IMG/VR virus record: IMGVR_UViG_3300017987_000047 | Strand: one strand, 5' to 3' | Source: a virus | Taxonomy: Duplodnaviria > Heunggongvirae > Uroviricota > Caudoviricetes | Length of the DNA stretch: 64,000 bases | Shown: positions 2,206-39,476 of the stretch, piece by piece | Position numbering within the stretch: position 1 is the stretch's first letter | Layout of the letters: every line of letters begins with the position of its first letter | Made by a program: the position numbers and the translations under genes | Notes under the pieces: model-generated | What the model was told of the DNA's origin: nothing | Databases searched by the model: none | What the model saw: only the letters and a program-made list of their open reading frames with translations

Positions 2206-3636
2206 ATGAATAAGAACCGAGAAAAAAGTAAGAAAGTGGCTTGTGACTTCTCTTCGAGAAGTTCCCCCCTTTTTCTTAAAACCAAGATGTTTAAAGCAGC
2301 AAACTATATCTTTGAAAAGTTAAATGCTGCTGGGCACTCCACTTATTTCGCGGGTGGTTGTGTGCGGGATTCAATCCTAAAACTATCTATTAATGATATC
2401 GATATTGCCACTTCAGCAACCCCAGACGAAGTCCAAAAGCTTTTCAGGAAGTCTAAGGCGGTAGGGGCATCCTTCGGGGTTGTGCTTATTGATATTGATT
2501 CCATTCCGTTTGAAGTTGCTACTTTTAGGACTGATAGCTCTTATTCTGACGGGAGGCACCCCGATAAAGTAGAATACAGCAATGATCCCAAGATAGATAT
2601 CCAACGTAGGGACTTCACAATCAACGGTCTTTTCTATGATGCTAAAACCGACGAAGTCCTTGATGTTGTGGGGGGTGTTAAAGACCTGGAAGCCGGAAAG
2701 GTGCGAGCAATTGGTAACCCGGAAGAAAGGTTTGCAGAAGATTACCTCCGGATGTTACGTGCTGTTCGGTTTGCTGCACGGTTTGGATTTGATATTGAGG
2801 ACGAAACTCTGTTAGCAATTCGAGGGAATGCCCATAAAATAAATGACTTAGCCGCCGAAAGGGTTAAAGCGGAGCTTACTAAAATTTGGGCCGGACCCAA
2901 CCCTCACTATGCTCTAGATCTACTTCGGACAACTGGGCTTCTCCAAGAAATATTACCGGAAGTCGCAGCTCTAGAGGGGGTGGAGCAGCCAAAGAAATTC
3001 CACCCCGAGGGTGATGTTTATAATCATACATACTTTGCATTGAAAGCCATGTGGGAGGATTTGGGAGCTGATGTTTCTCCCACCCTTGCCTGGGGAGTTT
3101 TACTCCACGACATTGGCAAACCACGGACTGCTAAGATAAATAGGAGTGGCCGGGTCAGTTTTAATGGGCATGACCACGTTGGTGCGAAAATGGCAGAAAG
3201 GGTTTGTGAGCGTTTGAAATTTTCAAATGAAGAACGAGATTTAATTATTACCTTAGTCCGCAACCATATGAAATTCTTGGTTGCCCGTAATATGAAAACC
3301 GTAACTCTTAAGAAGTTTTTACGAACTGAGGGTTTTGATCAACTCTTACAATTACATAAATATGATTCACTGTCGGGAATCGGGGACCTTTCAAACTATG
3401 AATATACTCAACAAAAACTCGATGCTTTTGAAGCAGGCACCCTCCAAGACGGCCTCAGGCCGAAAATTCTCTTAAATGGCGAAAATTTGAAGGAATTGGG
3501 GTACGAACCGGGGCCCATGTTTGGCAAGTTCATTCGTGCTTTAGAGGACAAACAACTAAACGAAGAGATTAAGACTAAAGAAGAAGCAATTGGTTTTGCG
3601 CGAGTATACCTTGGGAAGGGTAAGAAGAATGTATAA
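2206..3636 (+). CDS. cca: CCA-adding tRNA nucleotidyltransferase / poly(A) polymerase family with HD domain
   Basis: GGCVRD...IDIAT nucleotidyltransferase motifs, HD region LLHDIGKP; strong RBS GAGGAG before ATG 2206. Confidence 0.85.
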   Translation: MNKNREKSKKVACDFSSRSSPLFLKTKMFKAANYIFEKLNAAGHSTYFAGGCVRDSILKLSINDIDIATSATPDEVQKLFRKSKAVGASFGVVLIDIDSIPFEVATFRTDSSYSDGRHPDKVEYSNDPKIDIQRRDFTINGLFYDAKTDEVLDVVGGVKDLEAGKVRAIGNPEERFAEDYLRMLRAVRFAARFGFDIEDETLLAIRGNAHKINDLAAERVKAELTKIWAGPNPHYALDLLRTTGLLQEILPEVAALEGVEQPKKFHPEGDVYNHTYFALKAMWEDLGADVSPTLAWGVLLHDIGKPRTAKINRSGRVSFNGHDHVGAKMAERVCERLKFSNEERDLIITLVRNHMKFLVARNMKTVTLKKFLRTEGFDQLLQLHKYDSLSGIGDLSNYEYTQQKLDAFEAGTLQDGLRPKILLNGENLKELGYEPGPMFGKFIRALEDKQLNEEIKTKEEAIGFARVYLGKGKKNV

Positions 3637-6977: not shown

Positions 6978-7042
6978 AAAGATTTGACAACGTAGTTTTC
7001 ATCTCGATATACTTCTAAGATTCTTTCTCTACGTTGTCGGTT

Positions 7043-7114
7043 AAGCCGGTAGCTCAATTGGTTAGAGCGTCTGTCTTCCGGCGGATGATATGGGTTCGAA
7101 CCCCACCCGGCTTA
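7043..7114 (+). tRNA. tRNA-like gene, anticodon arm aberrant (anticodon not confidently assignable; possibly UUC/CCG), no encoded CCA
   Basis: Acceptor AAGCCGG/CCGGCTT, D-arm GCTC-AATTGGTTA-GAGC, T-arm ATGGG-TTCGAAC-CCCAC; anticodon stem only with G-U pairs. Confidence 0.45.
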
Positions 7115-7164
7115 TTTCAAAAAATTCCGGTTCACCTAACTTGGGTTTCTTAGGGTTAAAACAA

Positions 7165-19156: not shown

Positions 19157-19332
19157 AAAGAAAATAAATTTCGAACATTTTTCCCAAGATTTCTTTTATA
19201 TATTAGGTACCAAAGGGGGGCAGCAAACGCCCACCAGTAATACCCGGTAGCCGGGATTAAAACTGAGGCATTGCTTGTTACGGCCATGTGCCGTACGGCA
19301 CTTTCTGGAGCCCAAAAGCTCCTGCCTCAGAT

Positions 19333-19417
19333 GGGTGCGTCGCTCAGTTCGGCCGAGAGCACTGGCCTTTTAAGCCAGCGGAGTAATCCCACGTAGGTTC
19401 GAATCCTACCGCACCCA
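19333..19417 (+). tRNA. tRNA with Lys-type anticodon loop CUUUUAA (UUU) but 14-nt variable arm; atypical
   Basis: Acceptor GGGTGCG/CGCACCC, D GCTC..GAGC, anticodon stem CTGGC/GCCAG, T-arm GTAGG-TTCGAAT-CCTAC; no CCA. Confidence 0.6.
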
Positions 19418-19567
19418 TGAGCGATAGTTTAATAGGTTGTGGTTCTAGCTTAACCAAAGCATTCGGCTTAATCCCGAAAGATTTGGGTTAGAGTCCCAAG
19501 ACCACAGTCCGCAAAATACCAGGCACTCGCCAGCCTGGAGATGCAGGTTCAAATCCTGCTCGCTCAA
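19418..19567 (+). ncRNA. ~150-nt tRNA-like element: 7-bp terminal stem TGAGCGA/TCGCTCA plus canonical T-arm, with inserted core containing an inner tRNA-like cloverleaf (19438..19507, anticodon loop CTTAATC, T-loop TTAGAGT)
   Basis: T-arm GCAGG-TTCAAAT-CCTGC at 3' end; no D-arm found for outer molecule. Confidence 0.3.
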
Positions 19568-19573
19568 GTGGTT

Positions 19574-19656
19574 GGGGGAGTGGTGGAATGGCAGACACTG
19601 GGGCCTTAAAAGCCCTTGACCGTACGGTCGTGTGGGTTCGAATCCCACCTCCCCTA
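19574..19656 (+). tRNA. tRNA-Leu (anticodon UAA), class II with long variable arm
   Basis: Acceptor GGGGGAG/CTCCCCT, anticodon stem GGGGC/GCCCT loop CTTAAAA, variable stem GACC-gtac-GGTC, T-arm GTGGG-TTCGAAT-CCCAC. Confidence 0.75.
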
Positions 19657-20033
19657 CTTCTTTGAGAGGTTACGGGACCAGGCTAAGAACCCGTTAACCG
19701 GCCGTAGTATTTTCGTCTGGGAGAATGCTACTGGGTCTGGCCCAGCCGAGAATGGGCTATCAAAATTTGATCTGCTGCGGTGGTCCCTACCACTGTCGGT
19801 TTGGGTGGTCACTACCACTTGGTTGCTACCTCTAGGTTGGAAAGGGTAGAGCAGTTCAATGAAACGCGGTGGCCTGCTTACGGAGTGCCAAACGTCGATG
19901 GCAATGACGTAAAAAACACCATTATAGCGAGACTGGGCCTAAGCTGGATAATGAGGTCGCTATAACGTGGGTACTACGTGAGTGTACCTAGGACCAATGG
20001 TTCCCGACATTGGACACCGAAACAAGCGGGAAA

Positions 20034-20106
20034 GGGCCGGTAGCTCAATGGTTAGAGCAGTTGACTCATAATCAATTGGCTGGGGGTTCGAATCCCTCTC
20101 GGCCCA
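20034..20106 (+). tRNA. tRNA-Met/Ile2 (anticodon CAU), elongator-type
   Basis: GGGCCGG-TA-GCTC-AATGGTTA-GAGC-A-GTTGA-CTCATAA-TCAAT-TGGCT-GGGGG-TTCGAAT-CCCTC-TCGGCCC-A. Confidence 0.75.
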
Positions 20107-25578: not shown

Positions 25579-25721
25579 TCTTGTGTGCTTTGGAATTATG
25601 GTTAAAAACTCGATCATTGTTGAGACCGCCCCGATTGGGAAATGGATGCGGGGGAAAAACATTGAGGGAATAAAGGGATGGGTTAAGAAAAAAGGTGGAC
25701 ATCTTATAAAGGTATTTTAAG

Positions 25722-34200: not shown

Positions 34201-34514
34201 TGTTTAAACACTTGAAAACCGGGGTCCCATATAAGTTTACTGCTACAACAAACAAAGGGACTAAAACGGGGTTATTCGTTTTTGATAAACATGGGGAACT
34301 AAAAATCTGTGGTAGGTGTAGTTATATAGAAACAATAGGCAAAGAGTCTTCCTCAACATGGGCACAACTTATCGAAGGGTACTTCGAAGAAAATGAAGGG
34401 GATTTAGTAATTAAGTGCTTCTCCTATACCTTTTCTCGGGTATCAATAGAAGAACTTTTAACTGATGAAAATCTTCATGTAAGAGCTTGGGCGAAGGAAC
34501 AGGCAGCTAAATGA
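34200..34514 (+). CDS. LTH-tail family protein (LLTDENLHVRAWAKEQAAK)
   Basis: 104 aa; TAATG overlap upstream, ATGA overlap downstream. Confidence 0.55.
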   Translation: MFKHLKTGVPYKFTATTNKGTKTGLFVFDKHGELKICGRCSYIETIGKESSSTWAQLIEGYFEENEGDLVIKCFSYTFSRVSIEELLTDENLHVRAWAKEQAAK

Positions 34515-35050
34515 GCCAGCTTATTATCATCTCCGGTCCGTCGGGTGTTGGCAAAACAACAATTTGCAAAGCGTTATGTTTAGAAGAAGGCTTTGTTGAA
34601 TCCGTTTCAACAACAACCCGGCCGAAGCGGTCAACAGAAGAGTATGGAAAAGATTACTATTTTATCTCCGAAAAAAGTTTCGATGGCCTTGTAAATCATA
34701 ATGCTTTTCTTGAGTGGCAGCAATTCGCGGGGTTCCGTTATGGGACAACGAAAACAGAATTGGATGAGAAATTAAGAAAAAACAATTTCATTTTTGTAGT
34801 GGTAGAACAAGAAGGCGCGGCTAATATTAGAAAAACTTATCCTAATGCGATATCTATTTTTATAGCCCCTCCGAACAAGGAAGAGTTAATACGGAGGTTA
34901 TCAGGCCGAGGAGATACTCCGGACTTAAAAGAAAGATTAGCTTTAGTTAAGCAGACTTTAGAGCTCGCTAAATGTCACGATCATATTATAGAAGCACACT
35001 CGGTAGAAGATTGTATCGCTGAAATTAAAAATATTCTAGGACTTTCCTAG
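34511..35050 (+). CDS. gmk: guanylate kinase
   Basis: GPSGVGKTT P-loop, STTTRPKR motif. Confidence 0.85.
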   Translation: MSQLIIISGPSGVGKTTICKALCLEEGFVESVSTTTRPKRSTEEYGKDYYFISEKSFDGLVNHNAFLEWQQFAGFRYGTTKTELDEKLRKNNFIFVVVEQEGAANIRKTYPNAISIFIAPPNKEELIRRLSGRGDTPDLKERLALVKQTLELAKCHDHIIEAHSVEDCIAEIKNILGLS

Positions 35051-35064
35051 TACAAAAAAATATC

Positions 35065-35082
35065 ATAATATATAAGTTACCT
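35065..35082 (+). promoter_or_regulatory. promoter-like motif ATAATATATAAGTTACC
   Basis: Variant of conserved motif upstream of small basic ORF. Confidence 0.4.
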
Positions 35083-35128
35083 TTGGGCGCAAAAAACGCG
35101 CCTTTTCACCGCAGAGGAGACCAAACCG

Positions 35129-35269
35129 ATGGCAGGACCTTCAAAAGGCAGCGGCAGTAGTCTTGGAAAAAACCGGAAACACGACCAGGACAAAAACAGG
35201 CGGGCGCGGAAGGCCCGGAAAATCCAGAAGAGGAACGGGAACGGAAAACCCCCGAAAAAATAATTTCCT
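35129..35269 (+). CDS. small highly basic protein (46 aa), below ORF-track cutoff
   Basis: GAGGAG RBS 9 nt upstream; MAGPSKGSGSSLGKNRKHDQDKNRRARKARKIQKRNGNGKPPKK. Confidence 0.4.
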
Positions 35270-35930
35270 TCTGGGATCAAAGGCAATTCATCCTATAAAT
35301 AATACCTTTGGGGGCGCCATTGGCCATTTGCAGCCGCCCCCGGTGCGCGCGTAGGGCGAAAAGCCCGCTGAAGCAAGCCTGCCGGACACGCTGCCGGATG
35401 GGCAAACCATTTCGGAGGTTCAACATGCATCTGATCCGAGACGGCCCTTAAGAAGGAATCGATTGGCGGGGACCCTAAAGAAGCTTGAGTCCGGTTGCCC
35501 GCAAGCAGACCCACAAAGAAAAAAGCAAGAGAAACAAAGCATCGCCTGATCCCAATAACAATAGGAAAGGTGGACAATGCTGCAATCTTGAGCGGGGTAG
35601 TTTTCCTCTGCAGGTGAGGCCTATCTCGCGATGACAGAAAAAAGTTGAGCCTGCACCTTAAAAACGGGAAGAGGGGTCGTCGCAGACACTCAACCGCTTG
35701 CACTGGCCAGGAGCCCCAAGAAGAGACCGAATTGCGGGGGCGGCCTGATGCCGGGGAAGCGGTCATGCTGGGAAAAAGTCCGGACACGCAAGCAACCCAG
35801 CAACTCACCTCACGCGACAACCCCTTTTTCCTTCGTTTTAAATCGGTAGGTCATGTTAATGGAACTTTTAGAAAACCTTCGAAGTTCTGGGCAGTAACAT
35901 TATATATCTATTATAGTTTTCGCTTGGTAT
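35270..35930. other. GC-rich (~60%) non-coding island; candidate large structured ncRNA or foreign remnant
   Basis: No protein-like ORF; only low-complexity shadow ORFs without GC3 bias. Confidence 0.4.
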
Positions 35931-35933
35931 CTG

Positions 35934-36503
35934 ATGAAAGGCGTGACTATGCAACGGAAACAAAAATGGGGGAAACCTCTTCTCAAAGAAGAAATCGATG
36001 ATTTAGTCGCCCGAGTGGGTGTTTTTGAATGGGGGAGCTGTCAGTATCAAACCGCCGCAGGGTTTTTCTACTTAATCCGTGAGATGCGAGAAGATGGGAT
36101 TCCTTGGGAGCAATGCCTGTCCCTTTTAGGGATAGAGTGCAACTTTAGTAAGATTGAGAATAATTTCAAAAACTTCGGGGGCGAGGAGATTGCTGGAGGA
36201 TTCGACAAGAAAGAGTATGAAGCGCTCTTCAAAATGCCATACCCCCCACCAGACCCACCCTCGGCAGAGGCGGCTTTTGAAATGACAAAAGACAGGGCTT
36301 GGGATTTGTGGGGGGCAGCTCCCACAATTGCTGAGTGGTGTTTTAAGGACTTAAAAATTGAAGCTCCCCAAAGCCCCGGATTCGGGCCGTCAGGGAATGT
36401 GCTGGTACAAAACACGAATTATATAGTCGGTCTCTGTTGTGCCCTGCTTTACGAATATGGTTTAGTAAAAGATATTGAATGCTTTAAGGATTACGACACG
36501 TAG
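35934..36503 (+). CDS. hypothetical protein
   Basis: 189 aa. Confidence 0.5.
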   Translation: MKGVTMQRKQKWGKPLLKEEIDDLVARVGVFEWGSCQYQTAAGFFYLIREMREDGIPWEQCLSLLGIECNFSKIENNFKNFGGEEIAGGFDKKEYEALFKMPYPPPDPPSAEAAFEMTKDRAWDLWGAAPTIAEWCFKDLKIEAPQSPGFGPSGNVLVQNTNYIVGLCCALLYEYGLVKDIECFKDYDT

Positions 36504-36544: not shown

Positions 36545-37036
36545 ATGTTAGCCCTCTTTCTTGATATTGATGGGGTCTTATGCTTTGGGCGGAAGCATGC
36601 GTGCCACCTTGAGAAGAGAAAACTAAAATTTCTCAAGAAGATACAAGCTAAAACGGGCGCACGGATAATCTTAATCTCAGTCTGGCGCAAATCCGATTGG
36701 AATCTCAAATACTTAATGCCAGCATTCAAAAAATATAAAATTGAATGGGACCCAGCAGATAAGACAGGGTCTATTCTATACCGAGAGGGCAATGAACGCC
36801 CCTTTGAGATTAGGGATTTTCTAGAGAAGCATCCTGAAATAACAAACTTCGCGGTGCTAGACGATGAAAACCATAAATCGTTTGGTCACCATATGTTTCA
36901 TGCCGACTTAATGAGAAAACCTCCTGGCATAATTATTAAAGAAGGATTAATCCACAAAGTCGGCCTAACTAAAGATTTGGCTGAGGCGATTATTACATAT
37001 CTTAATCGGCCTAAACCGGAGTTTCCCTATGGGTAA
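36545..37036 (+). CDS. HAD-superfamily phosphatase (putative, PNK-phosphatase-like)
   Basis: Motif I FLDIDGVL, later AVLDDE. Confidence 0.6.
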   Translation: MLALFLDIDGVLCFGRKHACHLEKRKLKFLKKIQAKTGARIILISVWRKSDWNLKYLMPAFKKYKIEWDPADKTGSILYREGNERPFEIRDFLEKHPEITNFAVLDDENHKSFGHHMFHADLMRKPPGIIIKEGLIHKVGLTKDLAEAIITYLNRPKPEFPYG

Positions 37037-37869: not shown

Positions 37870-37900
37870 GTTTTTTTGACTTAAAAGTTTAAAGGCACAG

Positions 37901-37929
37901 AAAAAGGGAGCAGTGATGCTCCCTTTTTC
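37901..37929. terminator. bidirectional rho-independent terminator
   Basis: AAAAA-GGGAGCA-gtgat-TGCTCCC-TTTTT. Confidence 0.65.
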
Positions 37930-37952
37930 CGTAGCGGCGTTGTGAGGCTCGT

Positions 37953-38285
37953 CTAGAGCTTGGCGTCGACCTTCGCCGTCTCGAACAGCCAAGCGATGTT
38001 TTCGACCGCCCACGCCTTGCGGACGTACCACCGGCGGTTGCGCATGTACGCACCGGCGGCGTTGATGTCGTCCTCGGAGACGGGCTTGTGCGCGATCTCG
38101 CGCTCGCCGTTGTTGGTCCGCAGGGCCTTCCGGAGCTTGAAGCTCGCGGTGAACCCGGGGTCCGGGGACTGGGCGGAGGGGTCGAAATCGATCGACTTCT
38201 GCTCCTTGAGGCCCTTGAGAACCTCCATGAGCTTCATCGTCTCCTTCTCCCCGAACACCTTCTCGATCACAGTTTGCTTCGGCAT
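37953..38285 (-). CDS. hypothetical protein encoded by a ~65% GC gene (compositionally foreign)
   Basis: 110 aa MPKQTVIEKVFGEKETMKLMEV...; strong G/C third-position bias unlike all neighbours. Confidence 0.55.
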   Translation of the reverse strand: MPKQTVIEKVFGEKETMKLMEVLKGLKEQKSIDFDPSAQSPDPGFTASFKLRKALRTNNGEREIAHKPVSEDDINAAGAYMRNRRWYVRKAWAVENIAWLFETAKVDAKL

Positions 38286-38552
38286 GGCTCAACTCCTTGC
38301 AGGGATTGCCGAACAGAACAGTGGGGAAACTAACGCCCAGCCCAACTAGGGTGGGCGCCTAACCCCTTTGGTATTGGGTATATTGCTGAAACCAAAAGAG
38401 CCACGTATGAATTTATTTTTTAACGTAGCGTTTTTGGGATCACCTTTAACCCCTAATGCTAACCTATATATGATTGTATTCCGGCGTAAAACCGGTGTAA
38501 ATATTTTTTTTGGTTTGTATTTTGGGGTTCAGCTCTATAGTTTCAATAGAAA

Positions 38553-38572
38553 GCCCCCTATTATTAGGGGGC
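38553..38572. repeat. GCCCCCTA-ttat-TAGGGGGC hairpin
   Basis: Perfect 8-bp stem; related GGGCCCC..GGGGGCC hairpin at 38634..38654 and 9065..9082. Confidence 0.45.
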
Positions 38573-38633
38573 CAATTTGAAATTAGGCTACTTCCTTTTG
38601 TTTGCCCTTTTGTAGCTTTAATAAAATAATAAA

Positions 38634-38654
38634 GGGCCCCATTAATAGGGGGCC
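38634..38654. repeat. GGGCCCC-attaata-GGGGGCC hairpin
   Basis: Same GGCCCC/GGGGCC stem family. Confidence 0.45.
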
Positions 38655-38827
38655 TATGTTCCCAAAGGTAAATTAAAAACAATTAGCCAAAAATTCTCTA
38701 AGGAACCTACGAGGATCCTTATGAAATCTTTATATAAACCTTAGCAGGTTGCCCATTGGGGGTTCTGCTTTTTGGTGCTTGATTGCGCCACATCTTGGGC
38801 TAGGAATAGCCCGTCAGACAAGGAGAC

Positions 38828-39328
38828 ATGGAAATGTCGTCACTTATCTCTCCCCACGCCCGCGCAGTTTTCACGGCACTTGCCACTCAGATGTCGAATA
38901 CCGCAGACATCTCAAACGAGAAGATTGCCGAAGTCAATACTTTGCTTCGGAAGTCAGGGTACCCTGAGACCTTCATGGAACCCAACCCAATCTTCCTTTA
39001 CAAGGACAAGGACGATACTTGCGCAATCTTCCTCGTAGTGCAGAGTAAGGAACTAAAAACCGTCCCGGCGGTGATGTCCAAGTTTGATCAGAGATGGATC
39101 TATAATTGGGGGGCTATCTCCAGCTTGACTGGACAATGTCGGGGAATTCGCCTTGCAGCAGCACAAGTGCTTGAACACTTACTTGATACGGTGGCAGTCA
39201 AAGCCCGAGACTGGTTCGAGCAATCTTTCAACTTTGACTTGTCGGCACTAGATAATGAAATCTCCCAAATCTCGGACTATGAGAAACAGATAGCACAACA
39301 GCTCTCGGAAAACTCCAGCAAAGACTAG
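38828..39328 (+). CDS. hypothetical protein
   Basis: 166 aa; AGGAGA RBS. Confidence 0.5.
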   Translation: MEMSSLISPHARAVFTALATQMSNTADISNEKIAEVNTLLRKSGYPETFMEPNPIFLYKDKDDTCAIFLVVQSKELKTVPAVMSKFDQRWIYNWGAISSLTGQCRGIRLAAAQVLEHLLDTVAVKARDWFEQSFNFDLSALDNEISQISDYEKQIAQQLSENSSKD

Positions 39329-39356
39329 GAAAACTGGGGATTAAAATAAAACTGAG

Positions 39357-39389
39357 AAAAGGAGGGTTACACAGCCCTCCTTTTCTTTT
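39357..39389 (+). terminator. rho-independent terminator
   Basis: GGAGGG-ttacaca-GCCCTCC-TTTTCTTTT. Confidence 0.6.
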
Positions 39390-39476
39390 GGTTTTAAAAC
39401 CCCAGGTCAAACGTAGGTCCAAAAGAAAACGCCATATATTTAAAATGTCCAGAACCCCCTTTTAATTTCCGGAGGA

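Follow-up and report, generated by a model that had tools for sequence, protein, structure and literature searches.

The 64-kb window analyzed here (the whole 64,000-nucleotide (nt) stretch of IMG/VR record IMGVR_UViG_3300017987_000047, numbered from 1 on the + strand as shown) derives from a 335-kb phage-like metagenomic contig (ENA ERZ27256770). Between the gene for a small basic protein and the next gene downstream it harbors a GC-rich island that is a real and conserved feature of the genome. Compared with a sister lineage, the sole one found (contigs L002 from ENA and L003 from JGI), the island shows the pattern of conservation expected of a functional, structured RNA of the + strand, and within it lies an eight-codon open reading frame (mini-ORF), encoding MHLIRDGP, that, judging from its codon changes, is under selection at the peptide level and is translated. 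The mechanism is a proposal: we tentatively favor a cis-acting, translation-sensing leader whose mini-ORF would encode an arrest peptide of the SecM (IRAGP-like) type, and regard this reading as plausible rather than probable. The elements of the island and its borders are as follows.

35064-35081 (+): promoter-like motif P1, CATAATATATAAGTTACC, upstream of the micro-protein gene; putative function; kept in L002
35129-35263 (+): gene for a Lys/Arg-rich micro-protein of 44 amino acids (aa), with the ribosome-binding site GAGGAG at 35114-35119, 9 nt 5' of the ATG
35289-35306 (+): promoter-like motif P2, CATCCTATAAATAATACC, with TATAAATA at 35294-35301; putative function; surroundings nearly identical in L002
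35307-35842 (+): proposed transcript of ~535 nt, from promoter-like motif to terminator-like stem and U-tail; putative ends
35310-35341 (+): 5' hairpin GGGGGCG/CGCCCCC, predicted in the window and in L002, with differing loops
35414-35418 (+): Shine-Dalgarno sequence GGAGG, 6 nt before the mini-ORF ATG (8 nt before it in L002)
35417-35491 (+): helix X, GGUUCAA (35417-35423)/UUGAGUC (35485-35491), read by hand; overlies the end of the Shine-Dalgarno sequence and the spacer, and encloses the mini-ORF
35425-35451 (+): mini-ORF (block A1), ATG CAT CTG ATC CGA GAC GGC CCT TAA = MHLIRDGP-stop
L002, 1773-1799: mini-ORF of the sister lineage, ATG CAC CTA ATC AGA GAC GGC CCG TAG = MHLIRDGP-stop
35578-35643 (+): most conserved block, ~90% identical to L002, holding the hairpin GCGGGGUAG/CUAUCUCGC (35592-35629) with apical loop CUGC
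35666-35831 (+): 3' domain, with helix a (35666-35683/35814-35831), hairpin 1 (35693-35763) and hairpin 2 (35766-35802)
35832-35842 (+): U-rich tail UUCGUUUUAAA, directly 3' of helix a; proposed end of the transcript; same sequence in L002
35898-35915 (+): promoter-like motif P3, CATTATATATCTATTATA, before the downstream gene; kept in L002

The sister lineage has the identical layout (gmk, basic micro-protein, island, next gene), and its proteins are 78–82% identical to those of the window (gmk, downstream protein and micro-protein), or ~79% overall. Across the 180 codons of gmk, 65 synonymous changes separate the window from L002, nucleotide differences fall 36/15/83 on the three codon positions, and ~46% of third positions differ (~54% identical). 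The island is built differently, of near-identical blocks (including GAGACGGCCC, the 66-nt block at 35578-35643, GGGGUCGUCGCA, GCUGGGA and UUCGUUUUAAA) interspersed with unalignable, indel-rich stretches. A degraded foreign insert, the alternative offered by the original prediction, is therefore unlikely, since purifying selection is seen between lineages whose synonymous sites have diverged heavily.

No gmk relatives were found between 79% and 49% identity, and next to farther homologues of the downstream protein (L004–L007, 38–49% identity) the island is not present. A blastn search of 50,697 phage records with the island gave no match. Scans with the pattern of the conserved hairpin returned nothing in IMG/VR; in JGI metagenomes they returned L003 and two chance matches (GC-rich, coding-like bacterial DNA and a CRISPR array), and in GTDB genomes one chance match, in apparently coding sequence of a Mucilaginibacter contig. 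The CRISPR array (L011, LFRM01056737.1) has the repeat GTGGATCCCCGCGCATGCGGGGTAGAC, and its spacers matched nothing in the window beyond the 13 nt demanded by the pattern itself.

The mini-ORF begins ~115 nt into the proposed RNA. Its peptide and stop position are identical in the window and L002, and all five nucleotide differences are synonymous or preserve the stop, a bias that arose by chance in simulation with P ~2.5e-4 (~9e-4 when transition bias was included). In its Shine-Dalgarno spacing, its conserved start and stop and this synonymous bias, 35425-35451 has the features of a small translated ORF, which contradicts the original view of the island as wholly noncoding. The string MHLIRDGP did not occur in the literature text searched.

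A scan of IMG/VR with block A1 returned one contig, which is Xylella phage Paz; there the similarity continues past the pattern itself, with 28 of 33 positions matching. Related mini-ORFs are present in five lineages of phiKMV-like Autographiviridae of Xanthomonadaceae, in a ~160-nt leader upstream of a conserved gene (sequences compared: L008 (Paz), L014, L015 and L017–L019).

Xylella phage Paz: MQLIRDGPV (leader at L008 4844-5004)
Xanthomonas phage Xaa_vB_phi31: MHLILDGPH
Stenotrophomonas phage c9-N: MSHRIRDGP
Stenotrophomonas phage BUCT609: MSHLIRDGPKG
Stenotrophomonas phage P15 and Xanthomonas phage SB1: MYYNARDGPVY

These podophages have genomes of ~60% GC, and their mini-ORFs are unannotated. 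The core RDGP is found in six of seven sequences, with LDGP in Xaa_vB_phi31. Arginine is encoded by AGA, CGC or CGA, and leucine by CTA, CTG or TTG; because these codons vary among the podophages while the peptide is kept, selection acts on the peptide, and its retention across phages of very different GC content may reflect a target that is itself conserved, for example the ribosome. The mini-ORF is not present in Stenotrophomonas phage SBP1, which has a short spacer. A looser scan retrieved an IMG/VR contig with a long helicase-like gene (PHROG 62) whose true start, MQLMKDGPKYIAV..., is preceded by a Shine-Dalgarno sequence; the occurrence of the motif as a protein N-terminus may indicate where it originated. 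In the Paz leader, a closing helix read by eye, GCUAGGUA/UACCUAGC, overlies the Shine-Dalgarno region, and the matching helix in P15, SB1 and c9-N is CCUAGGAAG/CUUUCUAGG, also read by eye. Such a long-range helix over the ribosome site of the mini-ORF closes the leader in Paz, Xaa_vB_phi31, P15, SB1 and c9-N. Separately, the Gly-Pro codons GGCCCG are complementary to CGGGC ~100 nt downstream in three of five aligned sequences (Xaa_vB_phi31, P15 and BUCT609).

The C-terminus of the peptide recalls known arrest motifs. RAPP-like cores (RAPP, RGPP, the RAGP of SecM and, in part, RDPP) tend to lie toward the C-terminus of small products of the upstream-ORF type; their arginine is essential, and replacement of alanine by aspartate in RAPP is partly tolerated (PMC12992588). 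Arrest is supported by RAGP and partly by RDPP, and RDGP is not among the variants discussed there (PMC12992588). IRDGP equals the IRAGP of SecM at four of five residues. As in SecM (...GIRAGP), ApdA/ApdP (RAPP) and RGPP peptides, the motif found here is a C-terminal Arg-x-Gly-Pro at or beside the stop of a short ORF, upstream of other genes (in a 5' leader in the podophages) and conserved as peptide rather than as nucleotides (PMC12992588). The present peptides differ in having only 8–11 codons, with no long tunnel-contacting segment, in carrying aspartate at the usual Ala/Gly position, in having one member without the arginine and in showing no link to a secretion gene.

The 3' domain folds far better than its shuffles, with z-scores of −4.5 (+ strand) and −1.8 (− strand) in the window and −8.7 and −7.1 in L002; those of the full-length island are −1.9 (window) and −5.0 (L002). 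On the + strand A exceeds T (skew of 0.1–0.5), and the G·U pairs and the folding z-scores favor this strand. Both lineages share one 3' layout: helix a closes the domain, hairpin 1 is long and irregular, and hairpin 2 has GCUGGG/CCCAGC as its stem. Helix a carries three double and three single compensating changes and hairpin 2 one double change; hairpin 1 forms in both lineages, as a near-perfect stem of 13–16 base pairs (bp) in L002 but with other pairing and interruptions in the window, and is not alignable base by base. Pairs were counted on a hand-written structure, for those helices that MAFFT kept in register (3' half only): 97.1% of cells were paired, compared with 46–52% when partners were slid by 1–3 columns, four pairs were doubly changed (0–1 in the slid controls), and 10 of 500 shuffles reached the observed score. 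The preference of the original prediction for a structured RNA over a degraded protein gene is thus upheld by the covarying stems, the z-scores of the 3' domain and the absence of a conserved long ORF. An automatic search for helices common to both sequences, which allowed some positional tolerance, counted too many because of mis-registration and was discarded. The signal for an internal tandem duplication of the RNA was weak (local score 46 vs 30.6 ± 5.3, a value that the best shuffle also reached) and is not relied on.

The loop of hairpin 2 contains an 8-nt palindrome, GUCCGGAC in the window (35776-35783) and GCCCGGGC in L002 (~2160-2167), two mirror positions having changed with the palindrome retained. 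It may serve for dimerization through kissing loops or for binding of a protein.

Around the mini-ORF, the L002 counterpart of helix X is GGCCACC/GGUGGCC, which implies four double and two single compensating changes in an alignment made by eye; the helix is present in the minimum free energy (MFE) structure of L002 and absent from that of the window. Helix X and the closing helix of the podophages were read by eye because MAFFT left the variable stems out of register, and MAFFT/RNAalifold runs on the whole island, the mini-ORF region and the podophage leaders did not bring them into register. The stem of the conserved hairpin at 35592-35629 has three substitutions (L003 included), each compatible with wobble pairing, and 100% of its cells are paired; other changes fall in loops or bulges. 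Beside this hairpin, CAGA (35635-35638) pairs with UCUG (35430-35433) of the mini-ORF, a G-C pair becoming A-U in L002; more broadly, mini-ORF codons 2–4 (UCUG, AUC) are complementary to CAGA and GAU just 3' of the hairpin. In the unmasked MFE of the window the mini-ORF is paired with the 3' half of the conserved hairpin. When the mini-ORF is masked, as it would be by a ribosome, the hairpin leaves this pairing and takes its local form; the same masking in L002 makes the 3' strand of helix X find another partner. Having to fit two partners, A1 and the local stem, would explain the strong conservation of the 66-nt block.

The 3' end of the island resembles a terminator. Helix a has duplex energies of −29.9 and −36.9 kcal/mol in the two lineages, and a covariance model of the 3' half, run over 97 kb, matched a single other site (21 bits).

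39340-39400 (+): simple terminator, GAGAAAAGGAGGG-loop-CCCUCCUUUUCUU-UUGGUUUUAAAACC..AGGUCA, 20 nt past the stop of the gene at 38828-39328

This terminator shares with helix a and its U-rich tail the flanks of the stem, the tail (UUGGUUUUAAAACC) and the AGGUCA that follows. On the strength of the match, the 3' domain looks like an ordinary terminator of this phage with a loop insert of ~130 nt (~140 nt in L002), which suggests that the domain arose by insertion into a terminator loop. Helix a and its tail, lying downstream of the mini-ORF, also have the makeup of the intrinsic terminator of an attenuator. Directly past the tail, a candidate small ORF (35853-35897; L002 2235-2273) begins at the conserved AGGUCAUG. 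Its window version, MLMELLENLRSSGQ, is similar to that of L002, MTLKILEIFRSS, but the changes are mostly non-synonymous and it has no good ribosome site.

At the other end, P2 carries the motif CATNNTATAWA, often followed by (G)GNTACC, which recurs between genes on the + strand and has seven such sites in the window (positions 25700, 29016, 35064, 35289, 35898, 49836 and 51817). In L002 a near-copy of the motif precedes an inserted gene and the motif itself precedes the island, as would be expected of a promoter cassette. The inserted gene, of 64 aa, lies between the micro-protein gene and the island (L002 1251-1612; L003 421-782). On either side of it stands a near-copy of a ~55-nt segment containing the promoter-like motif, an arrangement like that of an inserted cassette. 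The octamer TATAAATA was considered as a general late promoter, and was set aside in favor of the longer CAT..TATAWA motif, having just six copies in the window with no pattern to them.

Judged from its reading frames, the island is not a long protein gene, intact or degraded. The two long ORFs named in the original prediction, 35293-35820 (−) and 35645-36001 (+), exist and indeed lack third-position bias, with GC fractions at codon positions 1/2/3 of 0.55/0.57/0.55 and 0.51/0.50/0.45; in contrast, a foreign GC-rich gene 2 kb away has 0.57/0.38/0.94. The antisense frame, of 175 aa, matched itself alone among 5.8 billion proteins (the second member of its cluster is the same protein with the start codon written differently), had no Pfam or PHROG match, and is split in L002 into pieces of 109, 54 and 118 aa.

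Nor does the island belong to a known RNA family. Rfam 15 at gathering score gave five tRNAs only over the whole window; at E ≤ 10, region 34900-36100 gave one spurious 14-bit match to a small RNA, and L002 1040-2340 gave generic hairpin matches only. Among the families without a match are those that had been put forward (GOLLD, ROOL, HEARO, RNase P, tmRNA and group I/II introns) as well as 6S, OLE and raiA, and ARAGORN found no tmRNA in the window. Several other resemblances were rejected. The RNase P CR-I/CR-V lookalikes GGGAAAAAGUCCGGAC (35770-35785) and ACAGAA (35634-35639) stand in reversed order, cannot pair with each other, have no model match, and the second is AUAGAA in L002. In a candidate box C/D k-turn the G of CUGA covaries as a Watson–Crick pair; a lambda boxB-like hairpin (GGGC-GAAAA-GCCC) is not kept in L002; CsrA-type GGA loops are, in a rough count, about as numerous as base composition predicts; and an 11-nt tetraloop receptor is not conserved.

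A leader or regulatory RNA is favored over a free-standing ornate RNA because of the mini-ORF and because the 3' end seems to have been elaborated from an ordinary terminator; that the leader would act in cis is proposed from the likeness of IRDGP to the SecM IRAGP and from the alternative pairings of the mini-ORF. A + strand unit running from promoter-like motif to terminator-like element would yield an RNA of ~535 nt, much richer in GC and more folded than its surroundings, in which the strong ribosome-binding site would drive translation of the mini-ORF. A ribosome pausing or arresting at the C-terminal R-D-G-P would sit on block A1, and this would open both helix X, which covers the Shine-Dalgarno sequence, and the pairing of the mini-ORF with the conserved hairpin flank and 3' half. 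This remodeling might then set the fate of the transcript at the elaborated terminator before the next genes, through read-through, stability or both.

A number of points weigh against this proposal. Helix a is unchanged, in both sequences, when the mini-ORF is masked at equilibrium, and a candidate anti-terminator between A1 and the 5' strand of helix a (10 bp, −18.6 kcal/mol in the window; 8 bp, −18.0 kcal/mol in L002) is only the second- or third-best upstream partner and consists of invariant bases, so that it cannot covary. Some 220 nt separate the mini-ORF from the terminator, far more than in classical attenuators, and the downstream gene need not depend on read-through, since P3 lies between it and the terminator. 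At the proposed RDGP arrest the nascent chain would measure merely seven residues, and in Xaa_vB_phi31 a leucine replaces the arginine that RAPP-type peptides cannot replace (PMC12992588). The excised 5' and middle pieces of the island fold no better than shuffles; the covariation is supportive rather than proof, its events being few and its power low with only two lineages. Nothing in the leader model explains how elaborate the 3' domain is, and the transcript limits, 35307 and 35842, are ones that we infer.

Compared with known systems, the proposed leader would, in its working, be most like leader- or arrest-peptide regulators, and in size and context most like ROOL or GOLLD. With the trp, his and tna (TnaC) attenuators it shares the order of Shine-Dalgarno sequence, short ORF, terminator stem with U-tail and same-strand genes, as well as leader codons that can pair with downstream segments. 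Unlike these, it is ~535 nt long with a wide gap between ORF and terminator, shows no clear, mutually exclusive terminator/anti-terminator pair at equilibrium, has a terminator loop with two large hairpins and is followed by a further promoter-like motif. SgrS/SgrT and RNAIII/hld are trans-acting base-pairing regulators with known targets. They too are structured RNAs that also encode a very small ORF, whereas the peptide here resembles a nascent-chain motif. To ROOL and GOLLD the island is akin in being phage-borne, multi-hairpin and 500–600 nt long, and its loop palindrome hints at self-association; ROOL and GOLLD do self-associate (10.1101/2024.12.08.627333). Unlike them, it matches no model at E ≤ 10, carries a translated mini-ORF, is found in two close lineages only and has no adjoining tRNA gene, the nearest being 15 kb off.

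The strongest rival, nearly as likely as a cis-acting leader though itself doubtful, is an ornate RNA that stands on its own and acts in trans, perhaps within a ribonucleoprotein that includes the 44-aa protein; it would serve as scaffold or decoy and might associate with itself through the palindromic loop, the mini-ORF being secondary or dual in function. It would account for the elaborate, covarying 3' domain, and is in keeping with a unit of ~535 nt that has its own promoter-like motif and terminator and is GC-rich in an AT-rich phage, with A-rich linkers between G+C-rich stems. The 66-nt block of highest conservation is not part of the mini-ORF, the palindrome changes symmetrically from GUCCGGAC to GCCCGGGC, and the Arg/Lys-rich micro-protein is linked to the island in both lineages with no terminator seen between them. 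That link, however, is adjacency alone; there is no Rfam family, the 5' and middle pieces are thermodynamically ordinary, and the family is limited to two close lineages across the collections searched. Such an RNA, moreover, needs no peptide-selected mini-ORF, which elsewhere sits in 5' leaders.

Less probable still is a stabilized messenger, in which the eight-residue peptide would itself be active and the hairpins and terminator would protect and dose it. The strong Shine-Dalgarno sequence, the flanking of the unit by stable 5' and 3' hairpins and the retention of the peptide across unrelated phages despite codon turnover agree with this; but the 66-nt block outside the ORF is equally conserved, 500 nt of conserved structure far exceed what a messenger needs, and the variation in length and in the residues after DGP among the podophages better fits a nascent-chain motif.

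We consider it very unlikely that the island is a decaying insert or gene remnant, with A1 the leftover 5' end of a gene starting MQL(I/M)(K/R)DGP. The helicase-like gene with its MQLMKDGPKYIAV start supplies a precedent for such a gene, GC-rich DNA does enter this genome (the foreign gene 2 kb downstream has 63% GC and a third-position GC fraction of 0.94), and the mini-ORF and the conserved block share one reading frame in both lineages. A shared frame, however, would occur by accident one time in three, and the blocks are ~90% identical where third positions of gmk are ~54% identical. The stop position is common to both lineages and further in-frame stops follow it (two in the window, four in L002), the distal frame has no start codon in L002, no long frame has a protein homologue, and the stems covary.

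An element acting as DNA (a replication origin, packaging site or protein-binding array) is hardly credible: the island is GC-rich and palindrome-rich, and its 8-bp palindrome stays a palindrome in the sister phage, but cumulative GC skew does not turn here, iterons and tandem repeats are absent, its G·U pairs would be A-C mismatches on the other strand while the + strand folds better, and the mini-ORF is under coding selection.

If the leader proposal is correct, this would be a compact case of a phage that senses or exploits ribosome behavior through an eight-residue nascent peptide, and the RAPP/RAGP family of arrest motifs would reach viruses and a minimal length. The peptide is far shorter than classical arrest peptides such as SecM, yet it is conserved between this 335-kb phage from the environment and podophages of Xylella, Xanthomonas and Stenotrophomonas that can be cultivated. 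Growth inside an ordinary terminator loop may be one route by which large structured RNAs originate. A bolder version, which we think improbable, though less so than the messenger reading, is that xHLIRDGP represents a new, host-independent family of very short arrest peptides in unrelated phages, placed here within a new class of 535-nt ornate RNA whose terminator loop has grown into a two-hairpin domain, and which self-associates through its covarying palindromic loop and/or binds the 44-aa protein as a device that reads the translational state of the cell. For annotation, the consequence is that gene callers place a spurious 175-aa protein here (in ENA, Logan and JGI contigs) and overlook two real micro-genes, of 44 and 8 aa.

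The larger of these micro-genes was part of the original prediction, which had the GAGGAG site right and the length wrong (46 aa, 35129-35269). Between the window and L002 its codons differ by 16 synonymous changes, 8 non-synonymous changes and an indel of a single codon; its nucleotide differences fall 7/6/19 on the three codon positions, a pattern as in gmk, and on this evidence it is a real gene. The micro-protein has no homologue in 1.84 billion representative proteins or the PDB. Its neighborhood comprises the following features.

34511-35050 (+): gmk (guanylate kinase), Pfam PF00625 Guanylate_kin E = 3e-37, PHROG 1815
35086-35106 (+): hairpin GGCGC/GCGCC then UUUU, 3' of gmk, visible in the sequence; putative terminator
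35949-36503 (+): downstream gene, 184 aa counted from this ATG; homologues begin at the equivalent ATG

The Pfam match bears out the assignment of the upstream gene as gmk. In L002 the stem of the hairpin after it is GGGC/GCCC, the pairing being kept with other bases. The downstream gene had no match in Pfam and PHROG searches, and the second gene past the island (36545-37036) encodes a protein with a HAD_SAK_2 'RNA repair' domain.

The island is GC-rich, as originally stated, although the figure of ~60% over ~650 nt was too high: 35270-35930 has 51.9% GC against a window mean of 41.7%, a 525-nt core (35311-35835) has 57.0%, and 60% is the maximum of 200-nt windows within the island. Windows of 525 nt with at least 57% GC make up only 0.2% of the 64 kb, and the others lie nearly all in a second island (~37.8–38.3 kb). 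In this second GC-rich island (37900-38375, −) lies an ORF of 110 aa (37953-38285) whose GC content is 62.8%, rising to 94% at third codon positions; it is equipped with an AAGGAG ribosome site of its own and with a terminator hairpin, GGGAGCATCACTGCTCCC followed by TTTTT. The gene has no Pfam or PHROG match and looks like a recent gain from a high-GC organism. In the spacer upstream of it (38560-38680, −) are two tandem hairpins with U-runs, GGCCCC..GGGGCC and GCCCCCT..AGGGGGC; the decamer TACCTTTGGG precedes the first of them and also follows promoter-like motifs P1 and P2.

Proteins of the window recur on contigs of 236–384 kb in ENA, JGI and Logan, and an origin from a giant phage fits its tRNA genes, CCA-adding enzyme and many orphan genes. 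The CCA-adding enzyme is encoded at 2206-3636 (+; PHROG 2244, E = 6e-84); tRNA genes for Lys, Leu, Leu and Met form a cluster of four at 19332-20106. A further tRNA-like gene at 7042-7115 (+) scores 50.7 bits with the Rfam tRNA model and is called tRNA-??? by ARAGORN, with a two-base 'anticodon (tc)', its anticodon loop apparently being of the wrong size.

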